Counted from the stretch's first letter, positions 13,878 to 58,720 are shown. The stretch is DNA of 64,000 bases from Patescibacteria group bacterium (GCA_023484045.1 JAMDAA010000035.1:10966-74965); one strand, 5' to 3'. Notes: generated by a model not told the origin, from the letters alone. Numbers and translations: made by a program.

Positions 13878-14393
13878 CTATTTTTTTGCTTTCAACCTAC
13901 GGTTGATCGCCCGCAGGGCGACTTGCCAGACTTGTTTATCTGATTTATAAGTCAGTCTTTTTTCGACTTCATGAATATCGAGCCATTCTACGTTTTCCAT
14001 TTCGTGATCGTGATTTTTCGTATCGCCGGACACGTACTGCATTAAAAAATAATACACGGTTTTTTTTATTTTCTCTTGCCCTGAGCCTGTCGAAGGGTTC
14101 CCCTCAAATTGATACCAATACGTAACCGCCGGTAACTCTTTTTCTATTTTCCCCAAAATTCCTGTTTCTTCCTCGACTTCCCGAACCGCGGCTTCTTCCT
14201 TTGTCTCTTTTTTCTCTTGCCCTGAGCCTGTCGAAGGGCCGATTAGTCCTTTCGGAAAAACCCAGCCGTGATGTTGTGAATGTTGCGCTACAAGAATCAA
14301 AATTTTGTTATTTTCTCTTTTATGGACTATTCCTCCGGCTGAAAATTCAAATTTCATAATTTTTTGCGTCCTCGAGAGGAATCGAACCTCCAA
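13878..14393 (-). CDS. NUDIX hydrolase carrying two in-frame copies of a 23-bp repeat element
   Basis: Nudix box GX5EX7REVEEETGI is present. Two insertions, at 14075-14097 and 14215-14237, encode (G/N)PSTGSGQEK. Confidence 0.8.
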   Translation of the reverse strand: MEVRFLSRTQKIMKFEFSAGGIVHKRENNKILILVAQHSQHHGWVFPKGLIGPSTGSGQEKKETKEEAAVREVEEETGILGKIEKELPAVTYWYQFEGNPSTGSGQEKIKKTVYYFLMQYVSGDTKNHDHEMENVEWLDIHEVEKRLTYKSDKQVWQVALRAINRRLKAKK

Positions 14394-14439
14394 CCATTAG
14401 GTTCGGAACCTAACGTTCTATCCATTGAACTACGAGGAC
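14367..14439 (-). tRNA. tRNA-Arg (anticodon CCG)
   Basis: Reverse complement: GTCCTCGTAGTTCAATGGATAGAACGTTAGGTTCCGAACCTAATGGTTGGAGGTTCGATTCCTCTCGAGGACG. Anticodon loop TTCCGAA. Confidence 0.8.
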
Positions 14440-14478
14440 ACTTCGTTGTACGCTCAGTGTAAACAAATATTATCAATG

Positions 14479-14501
14479 CTTGCCCTGAGCAAAGCGAAGG
14501 G
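14479..14501. repeat. GC-rich repeat element, short form, directly abutting the 3' end of tRNA-Ser(CGA)
   Basis: cttgccctgagcaaagcgaaggg ends at 14501. The tRNA discriminator base is at 14502. Confidence 0.7.
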
Positions 14502-14586
14502 CGGAGGGTACAGGATTCGAACCTGTGTAGGCCTTTCGGCCTCGAGTTTTCGAAACTCGTGCAATTGTCCGCTATGCGAACCCTCC
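14502..14586 (-). tRNA. tRNA-Ser (anticodon CGA), long variable arm
   Basis: Reverse complement: GGAGGGTTCGCATAGCGGACAATTGCACGAGTTTCGAAAACTCGAGGCCGAAAGGCCTACACAGGTTCGAATCCTGTACCCTCCG. Anticodon loop TTCGAAA. Confidence 0.85.
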
Positions 14587-14588
14587 TG

Positions 14589-14662: not shown

Positions 14663-14772
14663 ATTTGTTCCAACCGTCTATCCATTGTCCGCTAAAGCGA
14701 GATCTCGCCTCTGGCGGAAACTACGGGCACAAATCAATTTGTATTTTAGCCGATTACAGTCTTTGAAGCAAA

Positions 14773-15300: not shown

Positions 15301-15327
15301 ACATTTACTGTAGATGATTAAAATGTT

Positions 15328-16952: not shown

Positions 16953-16965
16953 TTAATTAATTGCC

Positions 16966-18360: not shown

Positions 18361-18393
18361 AAATATATTAAGAAAATAGGCGGAGAGGGTGGG

Positions 18394-18470
18394 ATTCCCT
18401 TCGACTTCGCTCAGGGTAAACTTCTCATCTCGCCCAGACTTCAACTCACTCTACTTGCACTGAGCAAGCA
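18394..18470. repeat. Two adjacent copies of the GC-rich repeat element (one inverted) at the 3' flank of tRNA-Ser(TGA)
   Basis: cccttcgacttcgctcagggtaa is the reverse complement of ttaccctgagcgaagtcgaaggg. It is followed by cttgcactgagcaagcaaagcgcgtcgaagtgcgg. Confidence 0.6.
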
Positions 18471-18485
18471 AAGCGCGTCGAAGTG

Positions 18486-18572
18486 CGGAGAGGGTGAGAT
18501 TCGAACTCACGGTGGCGAAAACGCCACAATAGTTTTCAAGACTATCCGGATAAACCGCTCCCGCACCTCTCC
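18486..18572 (-). tRNA. tRNA-Ser (anticodon TGA), long variable arm
   Basis: Reverse complement: GGAGAGGTGCGGGAGCGGTTTATCCGGATAGTCTTGAAAACTATTGTGGCGTTTTCGCCACCGTGAGTTCGAATCTCACCCTCTCCG. Anticodon loop CTTGAAA. Confidence 0.85.
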
Positions 18573-18745: not shown

Positions 18746-19447
18746 GTGGGTATTCTAGATTTTCTTTTCCCAAAATATTGTGTTAATTGTAAAAAAATCG
18801 GCTCGTATCTTTGCGGTAATTGTTTTTCTTATTTATCTTTTGACGACGAAAAAATATGCGTGGTTTGCGATCGGCCATCGATTAATAGCTTGACTCATCC
18901 GCGCTGCCAAACAAAATACGCGATCGATGGTGTTTTTACGAGCCTTGCGTATAAAGGAGTGGTTAAAAAACTCGTTTATAAGTTTAAATACAATCCTTAT
19001 CTCTCTGATCTTAAAAATCTACTTATAGAGCTTTTTTACGAAGGTTTAATTCAGAAAGAGGATTTTTACAGGGTTTTTTCGAAAGATTCGGTTTTTGTTC
19101 CAATCCCACTTCACCCTTCAAAATTAAAGAAAAGGGGATATAACCAGTCGCAAATTTTGGCTGAAGAGTTGTCGAAAAAATTCGGGAATAGAGTCGTAAA
19201 CTTACTAGAAAGAGTAAAAGATACAAAAACTCAAGCCGGTCTTAAAAAGGATGACAGAAAGAAAAATATTATTGCCGCCTTTGTTCTCAAAAGGTCTCAC
19301 CTTGATCAAGGTGAGACCTTGAACGGGAAAACCATCTTTATCGTGGACGATGTTTTGACTACCGGCTCAACTTTTTTGGAGGCGGCAAAGGTGCTCAAGA
19401 AAGGAGGAGCAAAGCGCGTTTTTGGCCTCGCTCTAGCCAGGGATTAA
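18746..19447 (+). CDS. comF: ComF-family protein (phosphoribosyltransferase domain with N-terminal Cys-rich zinc finger). Start uncertain
   Basis: [10 protein letters not shown]...CGNC...VCDRP zinc-finger motifs, then the PRTase signature [15 protein letters not shown]. The listed ORF start at 18602 overlaps tRNA-Ser and is spurious. A GTG at 18746 is proposed instead. Confidence 0.65.
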
Positions 19448-19911
19448 TAGGAGTTCTCATTTTTTCCATATAGCTTTAAAATTTCTTTGGCCCAAACTAT
19501 TACGTCTTTTACTCTAACGCCAGAGGGCTGTGGTTTCACCCATAGTTCTAGATTTTCAATTCTGTTATCATCCTTAACTCCGTTTTTATGGTGGACATTT
19601 TCATTGGACATTAAAAATCTTCCTAATTTTTTCTCCATTACGATAATGTGCTCGAATATATATCCCGTACCTTTTTGTGAATGAGGATGTTCTTTTTTTC
19701 GTGTTAATATATAGCCATTGTGTTTAACGGAAGTGTTATAATTTCTTCTAGTTTGACTCTCGCATTTTCCGCAGAAATTCGACGTTGGTTGTATAAGCTT
19801 ACCGCATTTTGGACAAGGTTTTTTGTAGATCTGACCCCTACAAGATGGACAAAGCTTATGTCTACTAGAGGGTGTAAACAGCCTTTGACATTGTAAACAT
19901 ATTCTCTCCAC
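19444..19911 (-). CDS. HNH endonuclease with N-terminal zinc ribbon
   Basis: Four CxxC pairs at the N-terminus. HNH core ...[20 protein letters not shown]. Confidence 0.65.
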
Positions 19912-19949
19912 AATTTAATATTAATTTATTGTGGACTTATTGTAAAGTG

Positions 19950-20334
19950 TGGAGATGTCGAGCATTGAGTCTCGAGTCCAAGAATATCCTTAAAAAACAT
20001 CTACAAGCTTATTCGATTTTTGTCCCACCAAAGGCGGGAGTCGCTCTATTCTTTTCTAATCGAAAAGAATGAATAAAGTCAAGGTTTATAATAATAAATA
20101 AGGACGAAAACCGTTTTCCTTATCATCTCTCAACTGTTTTTATGCCCATATCGCCCCGTTGAGAAAAGACAACATGAACAGGTCTAATTCAATTAAGCGT
20201 ATAGTAACGCCGGTTGATATCGACCGCTAAACGATTGCTCGTTAGCATTTATAATTTGAATCTGTTTTACGACTATTATTCAAAGTCGGCTTGCAGTTTT
20301 TTAATGTACTTTCTTGTCGATACGATGCATCCCC
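19950..20334 (-). ncRNA. ssrA: Candidate tmRNA (ssrA) next to smpB
   Basis: The reverse strand begins GGGGATGCATCGTATCGAC..., like the tmRNA 5' end GGGGnnGAttcGAC. It ends ...GGACTCGAGACTCAATGCTCGACATCTCCA, with a T-arm-like hairpin and an acceptor strand pairing with the 5' GGGGATG. A possible tag ORF is ...ANEQSFSGRYQPALLYA*. The tag frame is uncertain. Confidence 0.5.
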
Positions 20335-20369: not shown

Positions 20370-20819
20370 TCAAGTTGTTTTAGCTTCGGAGATCAATTCC
20401 TGCTCGATTTCTCTTTGGAGGTCTCTTTTTTTAATCGCTTCTTTTTTTTGGTATTTTTTCTTTCCGCGAGCCAAGGCTAGCTCGACTTTTATAAAATGGT
20501 GTTTGTCGTAAAGCGATAAGGGTACGATCGATAAATTCGATCCTTCCATTTTGGATTTCAGGCTTATTATTTCATTTTTATGGAGTAAAAGTTTCCTAGT
20601 TCTTTTTTCGTCGTAATTTTCGATTTGGGCGTATTTATACGGAAAAATTTTGGCGTTTAAAAGATATGCTTCACTTCCGATTATTCTAACGTGGCTTCCG
20701 GTTAAATCCGCGTGGCCAAGCCTAATTGCTTTAACCTCTGAGCCATATAAATTAATCCCGGCTTCAAACCGGTCTAAAATTTCATAATCAAAAAAAGCCC
20801 TCTTGTTCACAATTTTCAT
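20370..20819 (-). CDS. smpB: SsrA-binding protein SmpB
   Basis: FFDYEILDRFEAGINLYGSEVKAIR...HVRIIG...NRKLLLHKNEI matches SmpB throughout. Confidence 0.85.
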   Translation of the reverse strand: MKIVNKRAFFDYEILDRFEAGINLYGSEVKAIRLGHADLTGSHVRIIGSEAYLLNAKIFPYKYAQIENYDEKRTRKLLLHKNEIISLKSKMEGSNLSIVPLSLYDKHHFIKVELALARGKKKYQKKEAIKKRDLQREIEQELISEAKTT

Positions 20820-26873: not shown

Positions 26874-27697
26874 TTTCACTCGATAAAATAACAACAAACA
26901 ATAAGGCCTTGTATCTTGCTTACGATCAGGGTTTTGAACACGGACCGACAGATTTTAACGATGAAAATGTCGACCCGAATTTCGTATTAGATATCGGAAT
27001 AAAAGGTGGTTTTAACGCGATAATTTTCCAAAAAGGAGTCGCGGAAAAATATTATCCTTCGACAAGCTCAGGACAAGTTCCTTCGGCAAGCTCCCTTCAG
27101 CAAAGTTCAGAGCAGGCAGGACAAGTTACTAAAATACCACTCATACTTAAACTGAATGGAAAAACAAATCTTGTCGAAGGACGAGATCCGTATTCGCCAC
27201 TTTTGTGTACAGTCAGTGAGGCCTTGGATTTGGGTGCGGTAGCTGTTGGTTATACGATTTATGTCGGAAGTGAATTCGAAAGTAAAATGACATCGGAATT
27301 TTCTTCGGTTGTCCGCGAAGCGCACGAGAAAGGAGTTCCTGTAATAGGATGGATGTATTTGGCAGGAAAATTCCTTCGGCAAGCTCAGGACAAGCAAAAA
27401 GGCAGAGAACTAACGGCGTATGCTGCAAGGCTCGGATTGGAATTAGGCGCAGATATTATTAAAATAAAATATCCCGGGGATTTGGAATCGCTGAAATGGG
27501 CGGTCGAATCGGCAGGAAAGACAAAAGTTGTTATCTCGGGCGGGGTAAAGGAGAATGAAAACGAATTTTTAGAAACTGCAAAAACGATAATGGAGACGGA
27601 AGCAATCGGTATGGCTGTCGGCCGAAACATCTGGCAAAATAAAAATCCGCTCGAAATAACAAAAAAGTTGAAGGAGATTATTTTTAAAAATAGTTAA
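26870..27697 (+). CDS. Class I aldolase of the DhnA/FbaB (DeoC-like) family, with two in-frame repeat-element insertions
   Basis: MISLDKITTNNKALYLAYDQGFEHGPTDF... TIM-barrel aldolase pattern. Start set at the internal Met (ATGA overlap with the kinase stop). Insertions are TSSGQVPSASSLQQSSEQAGQ (27055-27128) and FLRQAQDKQKG (27371-27400). Confidence 0.55.
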   Translation: MISLDKITTNNKALYLAYDQGFEHGPTDFNDENVDPNFVLDIGIKGGFNAIIFQKGVAEKYYPSTSSGQVPSASSLQQSSEQAGQVTKIPLILKLNGKTNLVEGRDPYSPLLCTVSEALDLGAVAVGYTIYVGSEFESKMTSEFSSVVREAHEKGVPVIGWMYLAGKFLRQAQDKQKGRELTAYAARLGLELGADIIKIKYPGDLESLKWAVESAGKTKVVISGGVKENENEFLETAKTIMETEAIGMAVGRNIWQNKNPLEITKKLKEIIFKNS

Positions 27698-28341
27698 ATA
27701 TATTCCTTAACAATATCCCCAAAAAATTTTTTTACCTCTTTTTTCGTCGGTAAGGGTTTGGAAGAGGCTGGAATAACATCAAAATTTAATAAGTCGTCAA
27801 AATATACTAATTGCTCAAGAAATATTTTCTCTTCAAAAACGCTTCCGTACACTTTTTTTGCAACGGAAATAAGCTCGGGAAGTTTAATATAGCCGTTTTT
27901 AAAAACAGAGTAAAGATCGAAGTAATCGCGATACTCCCCGCGTCTTCCAATTGTATAAGCTTTTTGTACCGCAATGTCTTTTACGTTAAATAATCTTAAA
28001 TTGTTTTCAAAGTCTAATATTTCAAAATAGGGCTTAAACGGATAATGTAAAAAAGTAACTTTTACTTCGTTTTTAGTAAAAAATGTAAGTTCGTCGGAAG
28101 AATCTGTCGCAATGTTTTTAATCTCGAGAGTTTCTGATATTTTTTCAAGAAGGTTTTTCGAAAGAGGATTATCTCTAAAAAAATCAAAGTCAAAAGATTT
28201 TCTGTGGGCAAGGTAAAGCGCTAAAGCCGTTCCTCCGCCGAGTGTAAAATCTTTTGCGTGCAATAAAAGCTTTTTCAAAAGCTTTTGTCTTTTGCTATCA
28301 AGTACTTCTAGGTGCAGATTTGAGATATTTTTGTTCATCAA
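27694..28341 (-). CDS. AbiEii/AbiGii-family nucleotidyltransferase (type IV TA toxin-like)
   Basis: FTLGGGTALALYLAHRKSFDFDFF...RGEYRDYFDLYSV matches the DUF1814/AbiEii nucleotidyltransferase fold signature. Confidence 0.55.
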   Translation of the reverse strand: MMNKNISNLHLEVLDSKRQKLLKKLLLHAKDFTLGGGTALALYLAHRKSFDFDFFRDNPLSKNLLEKISETLEIKNIATDSSDELTFFTKNEVKVTFLHYPFKPYFEILDFENNLRLFNVKDIAVQKAYTIGRRGEYRDYFDLYSVFKNGYIKLPELISVAKKVYGSVFEEKIFLEQLVYFDDLLNFDVIPASSKPLPTKKEVKKFFGDIVKEYI

Positions 28342-30079: not shown

Positions 30080-30739
30080 ATGCAAATAATTCCTGGGATT
30101 TTAGAAAAAACTTGGGAAGAGGTTGAAAAAAAGATCGAAACCGCTAAAACTTTTTCAAAAATTATTCATATCGATATAATCGACGGAAAATTTGCGCCGA
30201 ACACGACTTTTTTAGATCCAGCGCCGTTTAAAAAATATTCAAACGATTTTTTTTTCGAAGTTCAACTAATGGTCGATGAACCGATAAATTATTTAAAACC
30301 TTTTGCCAACTCGGGGTTTAAAAGATTTTTGGGGCAGATCGAAAAAATGTCGAGTCAGGAAGAGTTTATAGCGCAAGGACAACTTTTGGGTGAAGTGGGT
30401 TTGGCGATCGATCTTCCAACCCCGATAGATTCGATAAAAGTTCCGTTCGACGGTCTTGACTGTTTGCTTTTTATGTCGGTAAAAGCGGGATTTTCGGGAC
30501 AAAAATTTTCGGAAAATATTTTGGAAAAAATAAGATCAGCAAGGCAAAAAACCTCGATCCCGATCGAAATCGATGGCGGAGTAAACGAAGAAAATATCAA
30601 ACGCCTTTTAGAATCCGGAGTTAATCGTTTTATCGCGACAAGCGCAATTTTTGGTTCGGATAATCCTTTAAATCAATATCGAAATTTACAAAACTTCCTT
30701 AAAGAGTCGGACTCACAGACGGAGAAGGAGACGGAGTGA
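30080..30739 (+). CDS. rpe: Ribulose-phosphate 3-epimerase
   Basis: HIDIIDGKFAPNTTF, LMSVKAGFSGQKF and EIDGGVNEENIKRL...FIATSAIF align with the Rpe motifs HFDVMDxHxVPNxT, LMSVNPGFGGQ and EVDGGV...AGSAIF. Confidence 0.8.
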   Translation: MQIIPGILEKTWEEVEKKIETAKTFSKIIHIDIIDGKFAPNTTFLDPAPFKKYSNDFFFEVQLMVDEPINYLKPFANSGFKRFLGQIEKMSSQEEFIAQGQLLGEVGLAIDLPTPIDSIKVPFDGLDCLLFMSVKAGFSGQKFSENILEKIRSARQKTSIPIEIDGGVNEENIKRLLESGVNRFIATSAIFGSDNPLNQYRNLQNFLKESDSQTEKETE

Positions 30740-32933
30740 AGATGCAGTTTACAGAATTTTCGGTTCCTTTTATAAAATATTCAATTCTCCCAAGACACGG
30801 TTTTTGAATAACATCAAAAGGCATTTTATATTTTTCATCGGGCTTATTTTTTAGGACCTCGGTCATGATTTTGTTCCAAATCGGTGCGGCACCCGTTATT
30901 CCCGATGCTAAACTTTGACTCATTGGGCTATTGTCGTTATTTCCAACCCAGACAGCAACAACATAAGAAGGTGTATAGCCGATTGTCCAATTATCTCTTT
31001 TGTTATCGGATGTTCCGGTTTTAACCGACACAGTCTTGCCAGAAATATTAAGAGGGGAATTTGTGCCGAATTCTAAGGCTCGAGCTTGATTATCTGAAAG
31101 TATGCTCGAAATAATAAAAGTAATGCCTTCATCTAAAACAGTTTTTCCATGGATTTCTTTTTTTTCTTCTAAGATGTTACCTTTATAATCGGTTATTTTT
31201 AAAATCGGGTTTAAATCGACTCTTCTGCCCTGATTCGCGATGGTTCCGTAAACGGTCGCCATATCGAGCATCGTGACATCCGCACCGCCGAGCGTTATCG
31301 ATAAACCGTATTTTTTCGAATCATCCCACGATTTTATTCCCATTTTCTTTCCCAAGTTTACGATCGCTTGGACCCCGACTTGATTTACAATTTTTACAGC
31401 AGGAATATTAAAAGAATTTGCAAATGCGATCCGAAGCGGAATATTCCCATGGAATTTACCGTCATAATTAACAGGTGAATAAACAGTTGCAGAACCGGTT
31501 GCAACAAACGTGATCGGAGAATCATTTAGAATTGTTGCAGGAGTTAGTCCGCGGGAAAGTGCTGCGGAGTACGTGACGACTTTTATCGAAGATCCGGGTT
31601 GGCGAAGAGAAAGTGTCACGTTTACATTTCCATCATTTTTTGTGTCAAAATAGTCTTTACTTCCGACCATCGCTAAAATATCTCCATTTTTCGGATCAGT
31701 TACGACACTCGCGCCGTTTGTAAGATTTAAGTAAGTATTATTTTGCACCTCATCTGCGACAATTTTTTCGGCATCTTCCTGAAGTTTTAAATCGATGCTT
31801 GTTATAATATTTAATCCGCCTTTTTCGACCATTCCGAGGCCATATTTTTTTACCAAAAAATCTTTCACATACATCACAAAATGCGGAGCGAATATTGGCG
31901 TTTGGGGAGTTTGAAAAGCTAGCTCTTCATTTTTTGCATTGTCGTGATCTTCCTTTGAAATATAATCCAAGGAAAGCATTTTGTCTAAAACTTCGATTTG
32001 TCTCCTTTTCCAAAGATTAGGTGTTGTGCCAAACGGAGAATAGATCGTCGGTGCTTTTGGGATTCCGGCCAAAAATGCAGATTCAGCAAGGTCTAAATCT
32101 TTGACGTTTTTTCCGAAATATATTTCGGAAGCCGCCTCTGCGCCCCAGGCAGTTCCCCCGTAAGGAACCTGATTAAAGTACATCTCGAGAATTTGGTTTT
32201 TGGTATAAATTCTTTCGGACCAGAAGGCAAGGATTATTTCTTTTATTTTTCTTTCGATCGTAGTTTCGGGACTTAAAAGCGCAGACTTAATAAGTTGTTG
32301 GGTGATCGTTGATCCGCCCTGCAACCCGTCTCCCGACGCATTTTTAATCGCTGATCTTATGATCGCGTTTACGTCAAATCCCGGGTGATCGTAAAAATCT
32401 TTGTCTTCGATCGCGATCGTCGCCTGCTGTAATTTTATCGGAATATCAGAAAGCGGGACCATGGTCCTGTTTTGATTTGCGTAAATTTGATATAAGAGCG
32501 TATGGTTTCGATCATAAATTTTTGTTGTTTGCGAGATGTCCCTTAAAGACAGCATTCTCGGATTCGGAAGGTTATCGATAAAAATAAATATAAGAATCGG
32601 GATAAAGATAAAAACACAGGAAAAAATAATGCCCCAAATAAAATATTTAAATTTTGTTAAAAACGGGAGAGGGAATATAACTATCGGCTTTGTTTTCTTA
32701 CTTTTTTTTATCCTATTTTTAATTTTTTCGTAGAATTGTTTTTTGGTTTTATTATTAGATCGAGAAAACCTCAACCTTCTTAAATCAAAGATTTCAAAAG
32801 TAATCTTAAAAAGATTAACTATAGGTTTAAATAAATTTTTGACAACAGATTTAATTGATTTAAACAATAAGATTACAAAATCACCAATTTTAATCAGAAT
32901 CTGCGCGATAAAAAAAGCAATATTCCCGATCAT
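30699..32933 (-). CDS. Class A penicillin-binding protein (transglycosylase + transpeptidase), paralog 1
   Basis: GT51 motifs IEDKDFYDHPGFD and GGSTITQQLIK. Transpeptidase region LSLRQPGSSIK (SxxK). N-terminal TM. Confidence 0.8.
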   Translation of the reverse strand: MIGNIAFFIAQILIKIGDFVILLFKSIKSVVKNLFKPIVNLFKITFEIFDLRRLRFSRSNNKTKKQFYEKIKNRIKKSKKTKPIVIFPLPFLTKFKYFIWGIIFSCVFIFIPILIFIFIDNLPNPRMLSLRDISQTTKIYDRNHTLLYQIYANQNRTMVPLSDIPIKLQQATIAIEDKDFYDHPGFDVNAIIRSAIKNASGDGLQGGSTITQQLIKSALLSPETTIERKIKEIILAFWSERIYTKNQILEMYFNQVPYGGTAWGAEAASEIYFGKNVKDLDLAESAFLAGIPKAPTIYSPFGTTPNLWKRRQIEVLDKMLSLDYISKEDHDNAKNEELAFQTPQTPIFAPHFVMYVKDFLVKKYGLGMVEKGGLNIITSIDLKLQEDAEKIVADEVQNNTYLNLTNGASVVTDPKNGDILAMVGSKDYFDTKNDGNVNVTLSLRQPGSSIKVVTYSAALSRGLTPATILNDSPITFVATGSATVYSPVNYDGKFHGNIPLRIAFANSFNIPAVKIVNQVGVQAIVNLGKKMGIKSWDDSKKYGLSITLGGADVTMLDMATVYGTIANQGRRVDLNPILKITDYKGNILEEKKEIHGKTVLDEGITFIISSILSDNQARALEFGTNSPLNISGKTVSVKTGTSDNKRDNWTIGYTPSYVVAVWVGNNDNSPMSQSLASGITGAAPIWNKIMTEVLKNKPDEKYKMPFDVIQKPCLGRIEYFIKGTENSVNCIFTPSPSPSVSPTL
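31585..31679. repeat. 95-bp block identical to 34080-34174 (between the two PBP paralogs)
   Basis: Direct comparison: atcgaagatccgggttggcgaagagaaagtgtcacgtttacatttccatcattttttgtgtcaaaatagtctttacttccgaccatcgctaaaat is identical in both genes. Two further shared blocks of about 32 bp lie near 32296/34790 and 32395/34880. Confidence 0.9.
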
Positions 32934-38669: not shown

Positions 38670-39722
38670 ATGACACGCGTTGCGATTAACGGCTACGGAA
38701 GAATCGGAAGGATCACGCATAGAGTAATTTTAGAAAAATACAATTCCGAAATCGAAGTTGTCGCGATAAATGCAGGTTCATCGACGGATATAAAGGGTTG
38801 GATGTACCTGTTAAAATACGATTCTGCATACGGGCCACTCAATAAGAATTTAGAATCTAAAATTCAGAATTCAGAATTAAATAATTCGATAGGGTCGCTC
38901 ATTATCGACGGAAAGGAAATTCCGGTTTTTTCTCAAAAAGATCCGTCTTTACTTCCTTGGAAGGATTTAAATGTTGATGTTGTTGTCGAATCGACCGGAG
39001 AATTTGAAAAGGAAGAAGAATTAAAAAAGCACATAACCGCGGGGGCAAAAACAGTCGTTTTATCAGCGCCATTAAAAGAGGGAACTTCTCCGACCTATGT
39101 TATTTCCGTAAACGATAAGGATTACAAAGGCGAAAATATTATTAGCAATGCCTCGTGTACAACAAATTGTATCGCGCCCGTTGCAAAGATTATGATCGAA
39201 CATTTTGGGGTCGAAAAAGCGATGATGACAACAATTCATGCTTACACTTCCGATCAAAGACTTCAGGACGGCGGTCACAAAGATTATAGACGGGGAAGGG
39301 CGGCTTCTCAAAATATTGTTCCAACTTCAACCGGCGCGACAAAAGCCGCGGCAAAGGCATTGCCGGAATTACAAGATAAATTTTCTGGCCTTGCGATAAG
39401 AGTCCCGGTAATCATCGGATCGCTTTCCGACTTTACGTTTCTTCTTAAAAAAGAAACAACGGTCGACGAAATTAACAGTGTGTTTAAGCAAGAATCTCAA
39501 AATTCGGCATATAAAGGAATTTTGACAGTGAGCGAAGATCCTTTAGTTTCATCCGACATAATCGGAAATTCAAACTCTTCGATCGTCGATTTGTCGCTTA
39601 CCCAAGTTGTTGGTGGCAATATGGTAAAAGTTGTCGCGTGGTACGATAATGAATATGGTTATGCGTGTCGACTCGTCGAGGAAGCAATAATGGTTGGAAA
39701 GGGGATTAACTCCGCTCAATGA
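38670..39722 (+). CDS. gap: Glyceraldehyde-3-phosphate dehydrogenase with one in-frame heptamer-repeat insertion
   Basis: NGYGRIGR and SNASCTTNC catalytic motifs. Insertion at about 38846-38885 (NLESKIQNSELNNS). Confidence 0.85.
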   Translation: MTRVAINGYGRIGRITHRVILEKYNSEIEVVAINAGSSTDIKGWMYLLKYDSAYGPLNKNLESKIQNSELNNSIGSLIIDGKEIPVFSQKDPSLLPWKDLNVDVVVESTGEFEKEEELKKHITAGAKTVVLSAPLKEGTSPTYVISVNDKDYKGENIISNASCTTNCIAPVAKIMIEHFGVEKAMMTTIHAYTSDQRLQDGGHKDYRRGRAASQNIVPTSTGATKAAAKALPELQDKFSGLAIRVPVIIGSLSDFTFLLKKETTVDEINSVFKQESQNSAYKGILTVSEDPLVSSDIIGNSNSSIVDLSLTQVVGGNMVKVVAWYDNEYGYACRLVEEAIMVGKGINSAQ

Positions 39723-43895: not shown

Positions 43896-46397
43896 ATGAA
43901 ACTTGACGGAATAAGACAACAGGTATTTTTAGACAGATACGCCTTAAAAGATAAAAAAGGACATCCGATTGAACAAGCTCCAGATGAAATGTGGCAAAGA
44001 GTCGCGCGTGGTGTTTCTCAGGCTGAAAAAAAAGAAGACAGAAAACTTTGGGAGAAAAAATTTGTCGACGCGATGAAGGATTTCAAATTTGTACCGGGCG
44101 GGAGAATTTTGGCTGGCGCTGGAACCGGTTTTGACGTAACATTTTATAATTGTTTTGTTTTGCCTTCTCCCGCCGATTCAAGAGACGGAATTTTGGATAA
44201 TCTTAAATCGATGATCGAGATTATGGCGCGGGGCGGAGGTGCGGGGATTAATCTTTCTTCTCTTAGGCCTCGCGGAGCGAGGGTTAAAAAAGTAAACGGA
44301 TTTTCATCGGGGCCGTGTAATTGGGCAGAGCTTTATTCGATCGCGACTCATGACATTATTCAACAAGGAGGATCAAGGCGAGGCGCTTTGATGCTCATGC
44401 TCTGGGACTGGCATCCGGATATAGAAGAGTTTGTTACTGTAAAACAGGATTTAAGAAAAATAACGGGCGCTAATCTTTCGGTTTGCGTATCCGATAGATT
44501 TATGGAAGCGGTAAAAAAAGATGAAAATTGGGATTTAGTATTTCCTGACCTTTCAGATAAAGATTACGACGAAAAGTGGGACGGAGATTTAACTACCTGG
44601 AGAGCATTAAAAAAGAAAGTAAAAGTATACAAAACAATAAAAGCTAGACATCTTTGGAATTTAATTTGTGAGGCCGCGTGGAAAAGCGCTGAACCTGGAA
44701 TCGTTTTTATGGAACGCTACAATAAAATGTACAACAATTGGTATTGGAACAGGGTTAATTGTACAAATCCGTGTGGAGAAGAAGGACTTCCGGCGTGGGG
44801 CGTATGTAATTTAAGTTCGCTCAATCTTTCGGCTTTTGTAAGGGGTTATTCTGTCGACAAGCCGGGAGAGATGGATTATAAAAGTTTGGCAGAACACGCA
44901 AAAATCGGAGTAAGGCTTCAAGACGACGTGATTAATATTGATAGTTACGCTTTCCCCGAAATCAAAGAGATGCAGGTAAACGGAGAGCGAAGAATCGGTC
45001 TCGGGACTTTGGGACTCGGCGACGCGCTTATAAAGATGCATCTTCGCTATGGATCGGATAAGTCGCTTAAAGTGATCGAAAAAATTTTCAAAACAATAAG
45101 AGACGCGGCGTATGAAGCGTCGACAGAAATCGCGAAAGAAAAAGGTGCTTTCCCGAAATTTAACGCGACAAAATATCTAAAAGGATATTTTATAAAAAAA
45201 CTTCCAAAAAATCTTCGAGACAAAATCAGAAAATACGGAATCAGAAATTCGCTTCTTTTGCAGGAAGCACCCACCGGCTCAACGAGTCTTTTATCCGGAG
45301 TTTCGTCCGGTATCGAACCGATTTACGAATTCGAATTTATCAGAAAAGACAGACTTGGTGAACATAAGATGTTTCACCCCCTTTATGAAGAATGGAAAAA
45401 AGCCCATCCGAATTCACTAACTAGTGAAAGACCCGATTATTTTGTTTCGGCGAATGATTTAACACCGGAGGATCATGTAAAAGTTCAATCGACAATTCAG
45501 CAATACGTCGATGCGTCGATTTCTAAAACCGTTAACGCGCCAAAAATACACACGGTAGAAGATGTTAAAAAATTGTACGAGCTCGCGTATAAACTCGGTT
45601 GTAAAGGAATTACATACATGAGGGAGGGTTCAAGAGAAGGGGTTCTGACAAGAATCGATGCTTCGGCAAGCTCAGCACAAGAGAAAAAAGAAGAACAGCC
45701 GGTTGCTACTACACAAGTGGTTTATTCTCATAAACCGATGGTTGCGCGGCCGGAAAGAGCAGAAGGAGTTACTTACAGAACTCAAACCCCGATCGGCGAA
45801 GCGTTTATTACGATAAATCACGATGAAAACAAAGAACCGTTTGAAATGTTTATTACGATCGGAAAATCGGGGTCAGATATTGCCGCGATGGCAGAGGCGC
45901 TAGGCAGAATAGTATCGTTGAACTTAAGACTTTCAGGCGGGCTTTCCCCGCGCGAGAGAGTTAGACAGGTTATCGCTCAGCTTGCCGGAATCGGCGGTGC
46001 AAGAAGTGTTGGGTTTGGTAAAGAAAAAGTTAGGTCTTTACCCGATGCAGTCGCAAAAGTTTTAGCGAGACATTTTAACTTTTCTGTAAACGGTAAAGTC
46101 GAAGATAAAAAAATGGTCGCAGTAACAAACGGAGAAGCAAAAGAGATGGTCGAAAAACAAGATCAGAGAGTAATTAAAAACGGAGAAAGTAAATTAGATG
46201 TTAAAGAATTTAAAGAAAAACAAGATATTATTATGCTTCAACAGCTTTCTATCGAAGGACAAGCGAGTGGTTTGTCGCTTGAGCATTCTTCGACCAGCAC
46301 GAGTCTTTTTGATGTGTGTCCGGATTGCGGAAGCGGAAGTTTAGCGTACGAAGAAGGCTGTAGAAAATGTTACAGCTGTGGTTATTCAGAATGTTAA
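43896..46397 (+). CDS. nrdJ: Class II (adenosylcobalamin-dependent) ribonucleotide reductase
   Basis: 833 aa. The N-terminal region and the C-terminal Cys cluster (CPDCGSGSLAYEEGCRKCYSCGYSEC) are typical of NrdJ. Small in-frame insertion at 45661-45685 (ASASSAQEK). Confidence 0.85.
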   Translation: MKLDGIRQQVFLDRYALKDKKGHPIEQAPDEMWQRVARGVSQAEKKEDRKLWEKKFVDAMKDFKFVPGGRILAGAGTGFDVTFYNCFVLPSPADSRDGILDNLKSMIEIMARGGGAGINLSSLRPRGARVKKVNGFSSGPCNWAELYSIATHDIIQQGGSRRGALMLMLWDWHPDIEEFVTVKQDLRKITGANLSVCVSDRFMEAVKKDENWDLVFPDLSDKDYDEKWDGDLTTWRALKKKVKVYKTIKARHLWNLICEAAWKSAEPGIVFMERYNKMYNNWYWNRVNCTNPCGEEGLPAWGVCNLSSLNLSAFVRGYSVDKPGEMDYKSLAEHAKIGVRLQDDVINIDSYAFPEIKEMQVNGERRIGLGTLGLGDALIKMHLRYGSDKSLKVIEKIFKTIRDAAYEASTEIAKEKGAFPKFNATKYLKGYFIKKLPKNLRDKIRKYGIRNSLLLQEAPTGSTSLLSGVSSGIEPIYEFEFIRKDRLGEHKMFHPLYEEWKKAHPNSLTSERPDYFVSANDLTPEDHVKVQSTIQQYVDASISKTVNAPKIHTVEDVKKLYELAYKLGCKGITYMREGSREGVLTRIDASASSAQEKKEEQPVATTQVVYSHKPMVARPERAEGVTYRTQTPIGEAFITINHDENKEPFEMFITIGKSGSDIAAMAEALGRIVSLNLRLSGGLSPRERVRQVIAQLAGIGGARSVGFGKEKVRSLPDAVAKVLARHFNFSVNGKVEDKKMVAVTNGEAKEMVEKQDQRVIKNGESKLDVKEFKEKQDIIMLQQLSIEGQASGLSLEHSSTSTSLFDVCPDCGSGSLAYEEGCRKCYSCGYSEC

Positions 46398-46410: not shown

Positions 46411-46454
46411 CCCTTCGATTTCGCCAAGTCAGACTTGGCTTCGCTCAGGGCAAG
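46411..46454. repeat. GC-rich repeat element (inverted orientation, with ccaagtcagacttgg palindromic insert), intergenic after nrdJ, flanked by TCAAAAA-type heptamers
   Basis: cccttcgatttcgccaagtcagacttggcttcgctcagggcaag. Its reverse complement begins cttgccctgagcgaag. Flanked by gatcaaaaatcaa and gaattcaaaaatcaaaactacaagttaaaactcaaaag. Confidence 0.65.
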
Positions 46455-46519
46455 AATTCAAAAATCAAAACTACAAGTTAAAACTCAAAAGTGTTAAAAT
46501 CAGAAAGATAAATTTAAAT

Positions 46520-46717: not shown

Positions 46718-47320
46718 ATGACAAAAATCTATACAAGAAAAGGAGATAAAGGAAAAACTTCTCTTTTTGGCGGAAAATGTGTTCAAAAATCAAATTCCCG
46801 GGTCGAAGCTTACGGGACAGTAGACGAATTAAATAGCGTGATTGGAATCGTTATTACTCAAGTTCAAAAATCAAAACTTCCTCCTTCGCTAAAGCTTCGG
46901 AGGACAAGCAAATCTCAAAACCATATCTTAAAGCTCAAAAATGAGTTGACCGAGATTCAAAAGGATTTATTTGAGATAGGAACAGAGCTTGCAGATCAAA
47001 AATCAGAAGTCAAAAATCAAAAACAACTCGCAGAGAGGATTGAAAAAATTGAGAAAGAGATCGATGAGATGGCGGAGCAACTGCCGGAAATTCACAATTT
47101 TATAATTCCCGGCGGGGGAGAAGCGGGGTCACTTCTTCACTTTTGTCGGGCAATCTGTCGGAGAGCAGAAAGAAGAGTGGTTGCATTGTCGAAAAAAGAA
47201 AAAATAAACAAAGAAATTCTCATTTATCTAAATCGTCTTTCGGACTTTTTGTTTATATCAGCACGATTTGTAAACAAATTAGAAAATAAAAAAGAAATAG
47301 TTTGGAGAAAAGAAATATGA
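46718..47320 (+). CDS. PduO-type ATP:cob(I)alamin adenosyltransferase, with two in-frame low-complexity insertions
   Basis: MTKIYTRKGDKGKTSLFGGKCVQKSNSRVEAYGTVDELNSVIG matches the PduO/MMAB N-terminus. Insertions are QVQKSKLPPSLKLRRTSKSQNHILKLK and ADQKSEVKNQKQ. Confidence 0.75.
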   Translation: MTKIYTRKGDKGKTSLFGGKCVQKSNSRVEAYGTVDELNSVIGIVITQVQKSKLPPSLKLRRTSKSQNHILKLKNELTEIQKDLFEIGTELADQKSEVKNQKQLAERIEKIEKEIDEMAEQLPEIHNFIIPGGGEAGSLLHFCRAICRRAERRVVALSKKEKINKEILIYLNRLSDFLFISARFVNKLENKKEIVWRKEI

Positions 47321-54176: not shown

Positions 54177-54422
54177 TTAGATTTTTAAACCTAAAATTTT
54201 CATCTTTTTATCTCTCCTCCAACCTTTAATTTGGCTCTCTCTTTTTAGGGCTGCAAATTTTGATTCAAGTGGTTCGGCATAAAGTAGTTTTACTGGTTTA
54301 TGAGACCTTGTGTATCTCCCGCCTTTCCCATTTTTATGATCCACAAATCTTGCATCGGGATTATTTGAGGAACCCGTATATAAACTGCCGTCAGAGCATA
54401 GAATAATGTAAACGAACCACAT
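54177..54422 (-). CDS. GIY-YIG nuclease-domain protein (UPF0213-type)
   Basis: MWFVYIILCSDGSLYTGSSNNPDARFVDHKNGKGGRYTRSHKPVKLLYAE... has the classic GIY...YTG...R...H...G...E pattern. Confidence 0.75.
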   Translation of the reverse strand: MWFVYIILCSDGSLYTGSSNNPDARFVDHKNGKGGRYTRSHKPVKLLYAEPLESKFAALKRESQIKGWRRDKKMKILGLKI

Positions 54423-54685
54423 AAAAGTGCTTGCACTGAACGGAGCGAAGCCTAGAAAAAGATATGTCCTTCGATAAACTCAGGACAATTCGCCGCTTCT
54501 ATTCTAAATGCTTGCAATGAGCAAGCCCGAATGAAATGAAGGGCGCGTCGAATTGTTGCGGGGCTGGGAGTTGCGCCCAGCCTGTGAGATTATGAGCCTC
54601 ACGTGCACTGTACACTACCCCGCGCGTGCGTACTATTATAACAATTGATTTCACCTTGGTCAACCTGATATACTTTGATCTGAAA

Positions 54686-54852: not shown

Positions 54853-55158
54853 ATGTCAAAACTTACGCATTGTGTTTACGTTTTGTTTAGTTTAAAAGAT
54901 AAAAATTTTTATATTGGATCTTCTTCAAATTTAAAGTCAAGATTAACGGACCATTTTAATGGAGAAGTTAAAAGCACTTTGTTCAGAAGACCATTTAAGC
55001 TTATTTTTTGTGAATATTTTTTATCTAAAAAAGATTCGTTAAGGAGAGAAAAATATTTTAAAACGACTTCAGGAAAAAAGGCATTAAAATTAATTATTAG
55101 AAAATCGCTTGATGAATTAATGCCTAAATTGGTTTCAAGAAATGCAAATTCTGTCTAA
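54853..55158 (+). CDS. GIY-YIG nuclease-domain protein (second intact paralog)
   Basis: ...CVYVLFSLKDKNFYIGSSSNLKSRLTDHFNGEVKSTLFRRPFKLIFCEYF... Confidence 0.7.
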   Translation: MSKLTHCVYVLFSLKDKNFYIGSSSNLKSRLTDHFNGEVKSTLFRRPFKLIFCEYFLSKKDSLRREKYFKTTSGKKALKLIIRKSLDELMPKLVSRNANSV

Positions 55159-55950: not shown

Positions 55951-55953
55951 TAT

Positions 55954-57498
55954 ATGAATTTTAAAAATAAACCCTACGACGTTGAAACTTTGCAGGGCAA
56001 GAAAATAGCGGTTATTGGGCTTGGGGTAGAGGGGGAATCAAGCGTGAGATACTTGAAAAAGCAGGGCGCAGAAGTTACTGTTTTGGATAAAAAAGATAGT
56101 GAGGATTATCTTAAAGATCTTGACAAATACGATTTGATCGTTAGAAGCCCCGGGGTTCAATTGAATAAAATTCAGAATTCAGAATTCAGAATTCAGAATT
56201 CGATTATAACCTCTCAGACAAAACTTTTTTTTGATCTTTGCCCTTGTAAAATTATCGGAGTAACGGGGACAAAGGGAAAAGGAACAACTTCTTCATTAAT
56301 TTATGAAATGCTAAAAAAATCCTTCGACTCCGCTCAGGACAAGGCAGAGAAAAATGTGTATTTAGGCGGTAATATTGGACAGCCGCCGCTTGATTTTTTG
56401 AACAAATTAAATGATCAATCTTTAGTAGTCCTAGAGTTATCGAGTTTTCAGCTTCAAGACCTTACAAAGAGTCCGTACATAGCAGTTGTCTTAATGATAA
56501 CTTCGGAACATCTCGATTATCACAAAGATATTGATGAGTACGTCGACGCAAAAAGAAATATCTTAAAATTTCAGACAGCGTCAGATTTTGCAATTGTTAA
56601 TCGGGATTATCCGGCGAGCAATGAATCGGATATTCAAACAGAAGGAAAAGTGTATTTTGTAAGTAGGGAAAGAGAGGTCGAAGAAGGGTGTTTTGTAAAG
56701 GACGGAAAAATATTCATAAGACTTGGTACTGAAGTGACCCGCTCGCCGCTGAGGTCGGCTTGCCAGTTCGACGAGTTTTCGAACGCAAGCGTCCCTGCGG
56801 TCGCCTCAGGCGACCTCGGGATACGCTCCGATGTTCATCGGAGTCTAGCGAAAACATCGTCTCATGGTAAGCCTCCCCGCGGCGACCCGCGCTCTTCTCA
56901 ATATCCTAATATCTTTGAAGAACAAGTGATCGATACAAACGACATTCTTCTTCCCGGTACGCATAATTTGGAAAATGTATGCGCCGCGGTTATGGCGGCA
57001 ACATTGTCAGGAGTTTCAAAACAAAATATTATTCATGTTCTTAAAACTTTTAAAGGTTTGGAACATAGGCTCGAGTTGGTAGATGAGATCAACGGCGTTT
57101 CGTATTACGATGATTCGTTTTCTACGACTCCAGAGACCGCGATCGCCGCGATTCAGGCGTTTAAACAGCCGAAGATATTAATTCTTGGAGGATCGAGTAA
57201 AGGGAGCGATTTTACAGAACTCGGTCAAATTATTTCAAAAGACGAAAGTATAAAAGCGATTATCGGAATCGGAGAAGAATGGAGCCGCATGAAAGCGGAA
57301 TTTCCAATTTCCAATTTCCAATTTCCAATTATCGAAGGGGCGAAGAATATGTTGCAGATAGCTCAGGCGGCTTCGAAAATCGCAAAACCAGGGGACGTTG
57401 TACTTTTGACTCCGGCCTGCGCGAGTTTTGGGATGTTTAAAAACTACAAAGACCGCGGAGAACAATTTAAGAGAGAGGTCGAAAAACTTAAAAATTAA
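55954..57498 (+). CDS. murD: UDP-N-acetylmuramoyl-L-alanine--D-glutamate ligase with several in-frame repeat insertions
   Basis: GKKIAVIGLGVEGES and VTGTKGKGTT P-loop; DDSFSTTPE and LILGGSSKG C-terminal motifs. Insertions at 56169-56202 (AATTCAG x5), 56321-56346, about 56735-56900 (a 160-bp GC-rich nested palindrome) and 57301-57329 (TTTCCAA x4). Confidence 0.8.
   Translation: MNFKNKPYDVETLQGKKIAVIGLGVEGESSVRYLKKQGAEVTVLDKKDSEDYLKDLDKYDLIVRSPGVQLNKIQNSEFRIQNSIITSQTKLFFDLCPCKIIGVTGTKGKGTTSSLIYEMLKKSFDSAQDKAEKNVYLGGNIGQPPLDFLNKLNDQSLVVLELSSFQLQDLTKSPYIAVVLMITSEHLDYHKDIDEYVDAKRNILKFQTASDFAIVNRDYPASNESDIQTEGKVYFVSREREVEEGCFVKDGKIFIRLGTEVTRSPLRSACQFDEFSNASVPAVASGDLGIRSDVHRSLAKTSSHGKPPRGDPRSSQYPNIFEEQVIDTNDILLPGTHNLENVCAAVMAATLSGVSKQNIIHVLKTFKGLEHRLELVDEINGVSYYDDSFSTTPETAIAAIQAFKQPKILILGGSSKGSDFTELGQIISKDESIKAIIGIGEEWSRMKAEFPISNFQFPIIEGAKNMLQIAQAASKIAKPGDVVLLTPACASFGMFKNYKDRGEQFKREVEKLKN
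56169..56202. repeat. (AATTCAG)x4 plus one degenerate unit, a perfect heptamer microsatellite in-frame in murD
   Basis: aattcagaattcagaattcagaattcagaattcg encodes KIQNSEFRIQNS. Confidence 0.85.
56735..56900. repeat. About 160-bp GC-rich nested-palindrome insertion inside murD (in-frame, no stop codons)
   Basis: Palindromes seen: gcttgc...gttcgacgagttttcgaac...gcaagc, gtcgcctcaggcgac and ctccgatgttcatcggag. Encodes TRSPLRSACQFDEFSNASVPAVASGDLGIRSDVHRSLAKTSSHGKPPRGDPRSSQ, which is absent from MurD orthologs. Confidence 0.6.
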
Positions 57499-57499
57499 C

Positions 57500-58720
57500 A
57501 TGAGTAAGTTTGGTTTCGACATTTCTTTTAAAGATAAATCTTCACGCGCCCGGATCGGAAAAATCTCGACCCCGCACGGCGTTATCGAAACTCCGGCGTT
57601 TACCCCAGTCGGTACTCAGGCGTCGGTTAAATCATTAGACCCGAAAGATTTAAAAGAAACGAAAACCCAAATATTTTTTGGCAATACTTACCATTTACAT
57701 TTAAGGCCGGGGGAAGAGGTTGTTAAAAAATTTGGCGGATTGGCAAAATTTATGGGATGGGATGGACCGACGATTACGGACAGCGGGGGTTTTCAGGTTT
57801 TTTCGCTTGCTCAAAAAAAAGGAAGATCGCGCAATCAGGAAGAAGAAATTAATCTGGTTAAGATTACAGAAGACGGGGTTGTTTTTCGTTCGCATATAGA
57901 CGGAAGCTTACACGAATTCACCCCCGAAAAATCGATCGAGATACAAAAGAATTTGAGCGCGGATATTATTTTAGCGTTTGATCAATGTCCGCCGTATCCG
58001 GCAAGTTATGAAGACGCCAAAAAAGCGATGGACAGAACGCACGAATGGGCAGTTCGTTGCCTAAACTCAAAGCTCAAAGCTCAAAAGTCAAAACTACAAC
58101 TTAAAATTCAAAACTTTAATCAGGCGATTTATGGGATAGTTCAGGGTTCGGTTTATGAGGATTTAAGAAAAGAGTCGGCAAAATTCATTGGCGATCTTGC
58201 CCTGAGCGGAGTCGAAGGGTTTGACGGGATTGCCATCGGCGGAGTCGCGGTCGGAGAAAGTAAAGTTGAAATGCTGCGAGCTGTTGAATGGGTGGTTCCG
58301 CTTTTGCCAGAAGAAAAACCCCGGCATTTGTTGGGCGTTGGGGAAGTGGATGATATTTTTGAAATTATTGAGCGCGGAATCGATACTTTTGATTGTGTTA
58401 TTCCGACAAGACTCGGAAGAACCGGATTCTTGTTTGTCGGGCCAAAAGAGGGGAACATTAAAAACCGATTTAGAATCGACATTAATAAATCGGTTTTTGC
58501 CAAAGACCAAGAACCGGTGACCAAAAATTGCAATTGTTATGTCTGTCAAAATTTTACCCGCGGCTATCTCAATCATTTATTTATAGGTAGAGAGCTTCTC
58601 GCATATAGACTTGCGAGTTATCACAATATTTACTTTATTAACGATCTCGTCGAAAAAATAAGGAACGCAATTTTAAACGGAGAGTTTAAAAAGATGAAAA
58701 GAGAATGGCTGGAAGCGTAA
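57500..58720 (+). CDS. tgt: Queuine tRNA-ribosyltransferase
   Basis: FGFDISFKDKSSRARIGKISTPHGVIETPAFTPVGTQASVK and the zinc site CxCxxC...H (CNCYVCQNFTRGYLNHL). In-frame insertions at 58063-58117 and 58196-58219. Confidence 0.85.
   Translation: MSKFGFDISFKDKSSRARIGKISTPHGVIETPAFTPVGTQASVKSLDPKDLKETKTQIFFGNTYHLHLRPGEEVVKKFGGLAKFMGWDGPTITDSGGFQVFSLAQKKGRSRNQEEEINLVKITEDGVVFRSHIDGSLHEFTPEKSIEIQKNLSADIILAFDQCPPYPASYEDAKKAMDRTHEWAVRCLNSKLKAQKSKLQLKIQNFNQAIYGIVQGSVYEDLRKESAKFIGDLALSGVEGFDGIAIGGVAVGESKVEMLRAVEWVVPLLPEEKPRHLLGVGEVDDIFEIIERGIDTFDCVIPTRLGRTGFLFVGPKEGNIKNRFRIDINKSVFAKDQEPVTKNCNCYVCQNFTRGYLNHLFIGRELLAYRLASYHNIYFINDLVEKIRNAILNGEFKKMKREWLEA

Follow-up and report, generated by a model that had tools for sequence, protein, structure and literature searches.

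A 23–24-nucleotide hairpin repeat inserted in frame in conserved genes of a Patescibacteria genome and found across many bacterial phyla

Copies of the element in the window

The sequence analysed here is a window of 64,000 nt (GCA_023484045.1, JAMDAA010000035.1:10966-74965) from the genome of a Patescibacteria group bacterium, in which a short palindromic repeat, hereafter the element, recurs inside protein-coding genes and beside tRNA genes. The window is A+T-rich (~38% G+C). The module consists of CTTG, a 4-nt 5′ stem arm (h5), GAGC, a loop, YCGA and a 4-nt 3′ stem arm (h3), giving a unit of 23–24 nt; the loop of short forms has 3 nt (YTG) or 4 nt (GNAG), and the loops of long forms hold an extra hairpin. 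Copy-by-copy reading, together with a search for a 4-bp complementary stem around GAG...CGA, identified at least 18 copies. Compared with dinucleotide-preserving shuffles of the window, CTTGYCCTGAGC with at most one mismatch had 11 matches (0.23 expected), TCGAAGGG had eight (2.35 expected) and the bipartite motif, with both halves within 70 nt, occurred 12 times (0.1 in shuffles), which rules out a chance origin. An initial annotation of the window had proposed a single repeat family with many copies; this proposal is borne out and its coordinates all hold, with further copies at 14439–14463(−), at 46882–46912(−) and nested inside 27078–27125. It had also set apart ‘inverted’ copies with a gctcaggacaag core; these are copies of the one element read from the opposite strand, in which a T-A outer pair replaces C-G as a compensatory change.

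Eleven copies are intragenic, nine of them antisense to the gene, and six of those nine read as PSTGSGQ-like peptides. Pfam assigns the host genes to NUDIX, DeoC-type aldolase, alpha/beta-hydrolase, class II ribonucleotide reductase (NrdJ), MurD, TGT and PduO-type adenosyltransferase; the TGT protein matches that of a Patescibacteria group bacterium metagenome-assembled genome in NCBI at 100% identity, its nearest relatives are in Levybacteria/Microgenomates, and an exact-sequence search with the NrdJ of the window returned no match. The NUDIX gene holds two short forms of the same sequence (CTTG-CCCT-GAGC-CTG-TCGA-AGGG), both antisense, one at site 1 (14216–14238(+); residues 40–48, GPSTGSGQE, in the Nudix-box loop) and one at site 2 (14075–14097(+); residues 87–95, NPSTGSGQE). 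In the aldolase gene, an antisense short form with stem TCCT/AGGA (27055–27077(−); YPSTSSGQV) has a tandem neighbour (27078–27125(−)) that can be read from the sequence as two copies, the outer one (CTTGTCCTG...AGCTTGCCGAAGGA) being interrupted after CCTG by an inner one of 24 nt, and a further short form is read in another frame (27372–27394(−); FLRQAQDK). Upstream of the catalytic domain of the alpha/beta-hydrolase, an antisense long form of 68 nt (38260–38327(+); residues 90–113 of the open reading frame (ORF)) has its halves parted by a 48-nt insert with its own hairpin. The nrdJ copy (45659–45681(−), antisense), with the compensated stem TGCT/AGCA, falls in the linker after the barrel and encodes DASASSAQE, followed by a pre-existing EKKEE; 14 nt past the nrdJ stop codon is an intermediate form of 44 nt (46411–46454(−)), with a nested CCAAGTC/GACTTGG hairpin in its loop and heptamer-like repeats on its flanks. 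A degenerate copy that lacks GAGC (CTTG-TCCT-...-CGA-AGGA; 46882–46912(−)) lies inside the PduO-type cobalamin adenosyltransferase gene and adjoins a heptamer array. The murD (56320–56343(−), antisense; SFDSAQDK) and tgt (58196–58219(+), same strand as the gene; LALSGVEG) copies are 24-nt forms with a GGAG loop.

The genic copies are all singletons, and three head-to-head dimers all lie at tRNA gene ends. One has as its left half a variant abutting the 5′ end of tRNA-Arg(ccg) (TTTA-CACT-GAGC-GTACAA-CGA-AGTG; 14439–14463(−)) and as its right half a copy that touches or overlaps tRNA-Ser(cga) at its 3′ end (14479–14501(+)). Another has its left half in the predicted N-terminus of an EamA ORF (TTTA-CCCT-GAGC-GAAG-TCGA-AGGG; 18397–18420(−)), and its partner, with a 12-nt loop and the compensated stem CACT/AGTG, abuts the 3′ end of tRNA-Ser(tga) (18454–18485(+)). 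The third stands exactly at a tRNA-Met 3′ end, with ATTG-TCCT-GAGT-TTA-TCGA-AGGA on the left (54467–54489(−)) and, abutting the 3′ end of tRNA-Met(−), a long-loop copy with the compensated stem CAAT/ATTG (54511–54555(+)). A degenerate copy, CTTGCACTGAACGGAGCGAAGCC, lies beside the start of a GIY-YIG gene (54430–54452(+)), and ~150–160 nt of degenerate element fragments (13380–13527) separate the 3′ end of tRNA-Ser(gga) from a conserved promoter-like CTTGACA...TATAAAT. In all, four tRNA genes of the window have a copy abutting the 3′ end, in one orientation, and one more has a copy at its 5′ end. Beside the 18397 copy, positions 18381–18399 hold an 18–19-nt duplicate of the tRNA-Ser(tga) 3′ end; the dimer lies between it and the real tRNA gene (18485–18572), and it resembles an att site, as after integration of an element.

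Covariance models from Rfam gave no match over the elements, neither at the gathering threshold nor at E values up to 10, so that no known structured RNA family was recognized. A tRNA-derived origin, considered for the strings TTCGA and GCTCAG that resemble those of the T-loop and D-arm, was dropped, as the pairing partners do not fit.

Filled and empty sites in close relatives

The element varies in presence between close relatives, as the initial annotation had suggested examining. We compared 30 kb of a sister genome (GCA_023485715.1), in which loci L003 and L124 are syntenic with 49–63 kb and 1–14 kb of the window at 73–95% protein identity. The sister genome lacks the MurD, TGT and both NUDIX inserts, has an 8-nt spacer in place of the 61-nt dimer between tRNA-Ser(cga) and tRNA-Arg(ccg), and lacks both the dimer at the tRNA-Met 3′ end and the ~150–160 nt of debris after tRNA-Ser(gga); its 30 kb contain no element copy, compared with ~18 in the 64-kb window. 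At NUDIX site 2, the window has exactly 24 nt more, between GGT and GAA, than the empty site in L124, and an independent close filled/empty pair (L216/L215) differs by the same exact 24 nt at this site, with no duplication. The murD gene has gained 24 nt relative to L003 and tgt 18 nt relative to L003, L217 and L218, so that net gains, where measured, are 24, 24, 24 and 18 nt, in agreement with the earlier claim that intragenic copies are in frame. No target-site duplication was found at filled/empty junctions (NUDIX, L216/L215) or in flanking heptamer arrays, and the heptamer arrays around copies in other phyla run on in register across the element. Judged by sequence comparison, the two NUDIX copies and those in MurD, TGT and NrdJ are insertions of 18–24 nt that left no target duplication, and gain or loss of the element involves a discrete unit of 18–24 nt.

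Alignments to solved structures and to more than 100 homologues per gene showed that the extra peptides are absent from orthologues, again as predicted. Relative to solved structures, TGT has six additional residues (LALSGVEG aligned to I-G), MurD has eight (FDSAQDKA), the NUDIX protein shows two clean 8-residue gaps (PSTGSGQE), and the aldolase has an extra block of ~24 residues (27055–27077 plus 27078–27125) and a 5-residue insert. The AlphaFold2 model of the NUDIX protein (predicted local distance difference test (pLDDT) score 90) is confident except at the two inserts, both modelled as non-regular segments between secondary-structure elements, with pLDDT below 50 at residues 42–47 of site 1 and with site 2 in a turn between strands. 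Both NUDIX inserts are thereby predicted to lie in low-confidence surface loops, matching the surface-loop placement raised in the initial annotation. Its statement that the copies interrupt conserved regions needs rewording: the inserts fall in loops and linkers between conserved blocks. Its observation that the copies are stop-free holds but is nearly automatic, because the element is open in five of its six reading frames.

Recurrence at the same codons

Homologues carry the element at fixed positions. The TGT insert occurs in four of 120 homologues, all at exactly the same position, and the nearest relatives of each carrier are without it; parsimony requires four changes on the tree, which equals the value for random permutation. 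NUDIX site 2 is filled in 25 of 120 homologues, with at least 15 changes on the tree, and the same set of 120 shows many diverged versions at site 1 and a third site with the same element in another frame (PIRQAQGK). The NrdJ insert is present in two of 121 homologues, window included. The phylogenetic scatter of same-site carriers implies that gain, or precise loss, recurs at fixed codons, and disfavours a single ancient insertion for all of them, except in TGT, where the three carriers with DNA read (the window, L001 and L002) share the rarer GGAG/GGAA loop. In the empty NUDIX sites, and likewise at the NrdJ site, the codons directly following the insertion point are GAR-AAA-AAA (EKK), and there, on the strand of the element, the unit sits just 3′ of TTTTTTCTC. 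Fixed placement relative to these codons would explain both the antisense bias and the dominance of the PSTGSGQ frame.

Distribution across phyla

Using the exact pattern CTTGYCCTGAGC-N3-4-YCGAAGGR, we found at least 120 loci in GTDB contigs (one genome per species). The matches listed come from Acidobacteriota, Chloroflexota, Cyanobacteria, Bacteroidota, Planctomycetota, Nitrospira, Ignavibacteriota, alpha-, gamma- and delta-proteobacteria, Saccharibacteria, Parcubacteria and Chisholmbacteria, and include the isolates Nodularia harveyana UHCC-0300, Baaleninema simplex PCC 7105 and a Flavobacterium; G+C content at these loci spans 33–71%, and their flanks are unrelated. Among the copies listed, the 5′ tag is CTTG in 125 and CCTG in nine, and the base preceding CTTG is G in 84 of 122. 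In IMG/VR viral contigs, the pattern occurs in 88 stretches, several of them multi-copy. The lineage specificity assumed in the initial annotation is ruled out by these scans, which found an identical core across many phyla and in viral contigs.

In other phyla, copies mostly stand alone, and where repeats coincide the element is found within itself and within other repeats. Self-nesting occurs at a fixed loop point, with stacked 5′ halves followed by stacked 3′ halves (L007), and the element also forms tandem arrays (L039, L049 and L074). It lies inside the loops of GTAG-tagged repetitive extragenic palindromic (REP) hairpins of Acidobacteria (L004, L035, L036, L051, L052 and L104), inside the loops of other stems (L040, L077, L105 and L115) and, at L095, in a sister element of the same architecture with a different tag and stem. 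It is also embedded in heptamer tandem repeats, and matches in Nostoc, Nodularia and Trichormus sit in heptamer arrays. Sister hairpins that share a GAGC-GNAG-CGA core and differ in tag or stem (GTCA-TCCT-...-AGGA-TC, GTCG-TTGC-...-GCAA, GAACC-...-GGTTC) were noted at L002 (~5700–5750), at L095 and in many flanks of foreign loci; they point to a superfamily of such modules across bacteria.

Covariation of the stem

The genome scan was open to any of the four Y...R combinations at the outer stem pair, and among the matches listed this pair was C-G in 68, T-A in 32, T-G in 20 and C-A in two (Fisher P = 1.7e-13). A second test was anchored on the unpaired parts only and discarded copies that matched the retrieval pattern; nine of the 15 remaining copies were fully paired, compared with a mean of 3.3 and a maximum of 7 in 2000 shuffles, and at least two of the six unpaired copies are long forms misparsed by the regular expression. 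Stems outside the retrieval pattern include TGAT/ATCA, CCCC/GGGG, CGGT/GCCG, CACT/AGTG and TGCT/AGCA, and the window variants CACT/AGTG, TGCT/AGCA and CAAT/ATTG also pair. These new, fully paired stem types imply double compensatory changes at all four stem positions, and the covariation indicates that the stem is kept by compensatory changes, under selection.

Other genes and repeats in the window

Three small stand-alone GIY-YIG genes (13628–13852(−), 54177–54422(−) and 54853–55158(+)) each adjoin a tRNA gene and a cluster of elements, and the window also codes for three 23S_rRNA_IVP genes and one HNH gene. The compared 30 kb of the sister genome lack GIY-YIG and IVP genes at the corresponding positions, and there tRNA-Met(−) and tRNA-Met(+) stand directly between DivIC and a racemase gene; the GIY-YIG genes behave as variable cassettes. 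The 23S_rRNA_IVP (four-helix-bundle) genes are at 2609–2974(−), 6552–6926(−) and 8435–8806(−), two of them bracketed by 44–50-nt inverted repeats of heptamer-like arrays (2541–2584/2975–3018 and 8393–8442/8807–8856). Around the Trans_reg_C gene, L124 has no IVP gene and L126 has two. The HNH endonuclease is free-standing, has a double zinc ribbon and lies directly downstream of the tmRNA gene (19444–19911(−), 19947–20334(−)), with SmpB at 20370–20819.

A+T-rich heptamer arrays form two families (units TCAAAAN and AATTCAG), at 8401–8433, 36456–36488, 46458–46490, 46908–46940 and 58081–58113 and at 38847–38885 and 56169–56207. Two arrays directly adjoin hairpin-element copies, others lie inside the GAPDH and MurD genes, and one encodes an extra KSKLQLKIQNF in TGT that the sister genome lacks; in other phyla, the hairpin element is flanked by similar arrays. 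MurD has a second in-frame insert of ~59 residues (TRSPLRSACQFDEFSNASVPAVASGD...; ~56722–56920, residues ~257–322), also absent from the sister genome and of a different element class. A 26-nt inverted match (88%) between 13873–13898 and 62487–62512 spans the stop codons of NUDIX and FtsH, whose proteins end in RLKAKK and RLKADK; the sporadic occurrence of the NUDIX tail VALRAINRRLKAK among homologues suggests that C-terminal tails and stop codons are provided by yet another small element. Further features are a 246-nt duplicate at 96% identity (3593–3838 and 4171–4416) in a type IV secretion system (T4SS)-pilin gene cluster, tandem class A penicillin-binding-protein paralogues (30699–32933 and 33020–35173) and an AbiEii-type nucleotidyltransferase toxin gene (27694–28341(−)) that overlaps the end of the aldolase gene.

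Relation to known repeats

Rickettsia palindromic elements (RPEs) are ~100–150 bp long and known only from Rickettsia and relatives. The resemblance to RPEs noted in the initial annotation stands for the phenomenon, in-frame insertion in protein-coding genes tolerated as extra surface peptides, which is also that of intragenic REPs; membership is ruled out by size (23–24 nt, up to 68 nt with nested inserts), sequence, 5′ tag and host range, the present host being a member of the Patescibacteria and the element being found in many phyla. That a palindromic repeat can be tolerated in frame in proteins is already known from RPEs and REPs. What is unusual here is the cross-phylum identity of so small a unit, its conserved non-canonical core and its recurrent insertion at the same codons of essential genes.

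The element shares with REPs and REPINs (PMC3733652, PMC3116915) the short hairpin, an unpaired conserved end tetranucleotide and occasional in-frame placement in ORFs; both GTAG- and CGTC-tagged REPs have been found within ORFs, and those of the CGTC class have no transposase of their own close by (PMC3733652). REPs often form head-to-head dimers, an arrangement seen here at three tRNA ends. Unlike REPs, it has the tag CTTG rather than GTAG or CGTC, a 4-bp stem with a conserved non-canonical core rather than a stem of at least 8 bp, mostly intragenic copies in the window, and a sequence common to many phyla, whereas REP families are usually species- or genus-specific. A DDE-derived MITE (miniature inverted-repeat transposable element) is ruled out, the element being a single hairpin with no terminal inverted repeats and no target-site duplication. 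Small dispersed repeats (SDRs) of 21–27 nt (Elhai et al. 2008, as cited in PMC3116915 and PMC5861425) are described as mobile, as inserting in other short repeats (SDR5 into HIP1) and as restricted to Nostocaceae (PMC5861425). Going by published descriptions of SDRs, the element resembles them in size class (~24 nt), presumed mobility and insertion in other repeats, and appears to differ in being cross-phylum and in frame in housekeeping genes, neither of which can be attributed to SDRs.

IS91-family elements have an essential 5′-CTTG (or GTTC/GTCC) beside a subterminal imperfect palindrome (oriIS), produce no target duplication and form single-stranded circles (PMC13181058). Our element likewise has CTTG next to a palindrome and no duplication, a mechanistic resemblance rather than membership: it measures 24 nt against 1.5–2 kb, and no IS91-like transposase or terIS end was seen in the window. 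Inserts in rRNA genes of the candidate phyla radiation (CPR) come from the same host clade, and there GIY-YIG and 23S_rRNA_IVP cassettes accompany short, ORF-less, non-intron inserts at stem-loop tips; these concern rRNA genes only, and neither protein-gene insertion nor the present repeat is described (PMC11270868). A literature search using DNA strings, peptide strings, CPR with MITE, REP or GIY-YIG, and SDR or nanoMITE returned no description of the element.

Mechanism and alternative explanations

The explanation that we favour, and consider probable, is trans-mobilized transposition of a single-strand hairpin (REP- or ‘nanoMITE’-like and non-autonomous), followed by selection for in-frame loop insertions. 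As single-stranded DNA, the unit would fold into a 4-bp stem with a conserved core, for the most part not Watson-Crick-paired (GAGC...YCGA; loop YTG or GNAG), and a 5′ CTTG, and a protein supplied in trans would recognize the hairpin and its tag and would cut and rejoin single strands. By analogy, the closest precedents for such an enzyme are HUH-type transposases, either RAYT/IS200 Y1 or IS91-like Y2; a 5′ tetranucleotide, an adjacent imperfect palindrome, the lack of duplication and targets prone to being single-stranded together resemble the outcome of HUH-type activity, which we take as a lead and not as membership. In this A+T-rich genome, the unit would land immediately 3′ of a T-rich tract whose last base, on the strand of the unit, is C; on the coding strand, this position directly precedes GAR-AAA-AAA (Glu-Lys-Lys) codons. 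Selection would then keep copies whose length is a multiple of three, that carry no stop codon and that fall in a tolerant surface loop. With such a filter, the genic copies are most likely translated passengers without a dedicated function.

Several observations weigh against hairpin transposition. REP families are normally species-specific, and cross-phylum identity is unexpected under a simple REP/RAYT model. No transposase of any class (Y1/RAYT, IS91-like or DDE) was detected among the ~58 ORFs scanned in the 64 kb of genome covered, and in ~200 loci of other organisms the neighbours of the element included no recurrent protein family. When 150 small ORFs lying no more than 400 nt from copies in other organisms were scanned with Pfam, likewise no family recurred, and the idea of a mobilizing protein encoded in cis was dropped. 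Nearest-neighbour DNA folding found the 23–24-nt form no more stable than shuffles (z ~0), which leaves a hairpin stable by standard energetics unsupported and the covariation as the case for the hairpin; the hairpin, if real, presumably depends on tandem G·A beside the stem and, in copies with GNAG loops, on a GCGNAGY mini-hairpin. CTTG is already present at the empty TGT site and not at NUDIX site 2, which makes the ends of the unit ambiguous, and the TGT carriers could reflect one old insertion with recombination or many precise losses instead of repeated insertion.

The copies could also have arisen with no dedicated enzyme, through gene conversion or template switching in the course of replication or repair: a nascent strand would anneal to another copy at a stretch of microhomology, copy its hairpin and return. 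Empty sites do sometimes resemble element ends (TTGCCT at the empty TGT site of L217 versus TTGCCCT in the element; CTTTTCC/CGAAAT at the empty MurD site versus CTTGTCC...CGAAGGAT), copies in different genes are alike beyond the core, as in the flanks of NUDIX site 1 and nrdJ (82% over 39 nt), and the lack of a transposase in the window or among recurrent neighbours elsewhere would be expected. We nevertheless judge this unlikely: the sharp, reproducible ends and the unpaired core conserved across genomes of 33–71% G+C speak for sequence-specific recognition rather than passive copying, NUDIX site 2 has no microhomology at one junction, and nested insertions enter at one fixed loop point. Quite improbable, in our assessment, is a structured signal of benefit to the host, such as a processing or termination hairpin flanking tRNAs or a protein-binding site, with genic copies as by-products. 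Such a signal would fit the single orientation of the copies abutting four tRNA 3′ ends, the copy at one 5′ end, a sister-type hairpin at the same tRNA-Met end in another genome (L002), the copy just past the nrdJ stop codon and the covarying stem. Yet the sister genome has the same tRNA genes without the element, which is therefore dispensable; copies lie on both strands, within coding regions, nested and in tandem arrays; and neither an Rfam match, appreciable predicted stability nor the geometry of a T-run terminator was found.

The small GIY-YIG nucleases next to the densest clusters might be mobilizing or homing enzymes, with the hairpins as their recognition sites or as cassette scars. 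This was suggested by the three such genes of the 64-kb window, each of which adjoins a tRNA gene and a cluster of elements and is missing along with the elements from the sister genome, and by the cassettes that accompany short ORF-less inserts in CPR rRNA genes (PMC11270868). But a GIY-YIG profile found a similar gene at only one of 120 loci from other phyla (among the matches listed), no GIY-YIG gene appeared among the 150 adjacent small ORFs, and most copies, all genic ones included, lie far away from GIY-YIG genes. Shared tolerance of the same intergenic spots explains the co-location equally well and, as the association is lost outside the clade, we treat it in that way and hold a role for these nucleases to be very improbable.

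As a more far-reaching reading, we put forward tentatively, as a possibility short of even odds, that one 24-nt hairpin unit, transposable and spreading horizontally, is common to bacteria at large and is possibly the smallest mobile element that phyla have in common. It would owe its movement to an HUH-type or host enzyme, a single-strand nuclease or transposase of wide occurrence, and its transfer between phyla in part to phages; in streamlined CPR genomes it would repeatedly remodel the surface loops of essential enzymes at defined codons.

Implications

If truly mobile, the element would show how small a transposable unit can be and still retain its identity from phylum to phylum, and the conservation of its unpaired core suggests that a specific protein is involved. 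Such repeats are translated by gene callers and homology tools, and the resulting PSTGSGQ, LRQAQGK, FDRLRA and LALSLSKG peptides can give spurious similarity. Filled/empty polymorphisms are usable as strain markers, and the tolerated sites mark permissive loops in TGT, MurD, NrdJ and NUDIX hydrolases. In the Patescibacteria, conserved proteins show puzzling small insertions and differences in length, a large part of which the element accounts for, and these arise repeatedly at the same codons.

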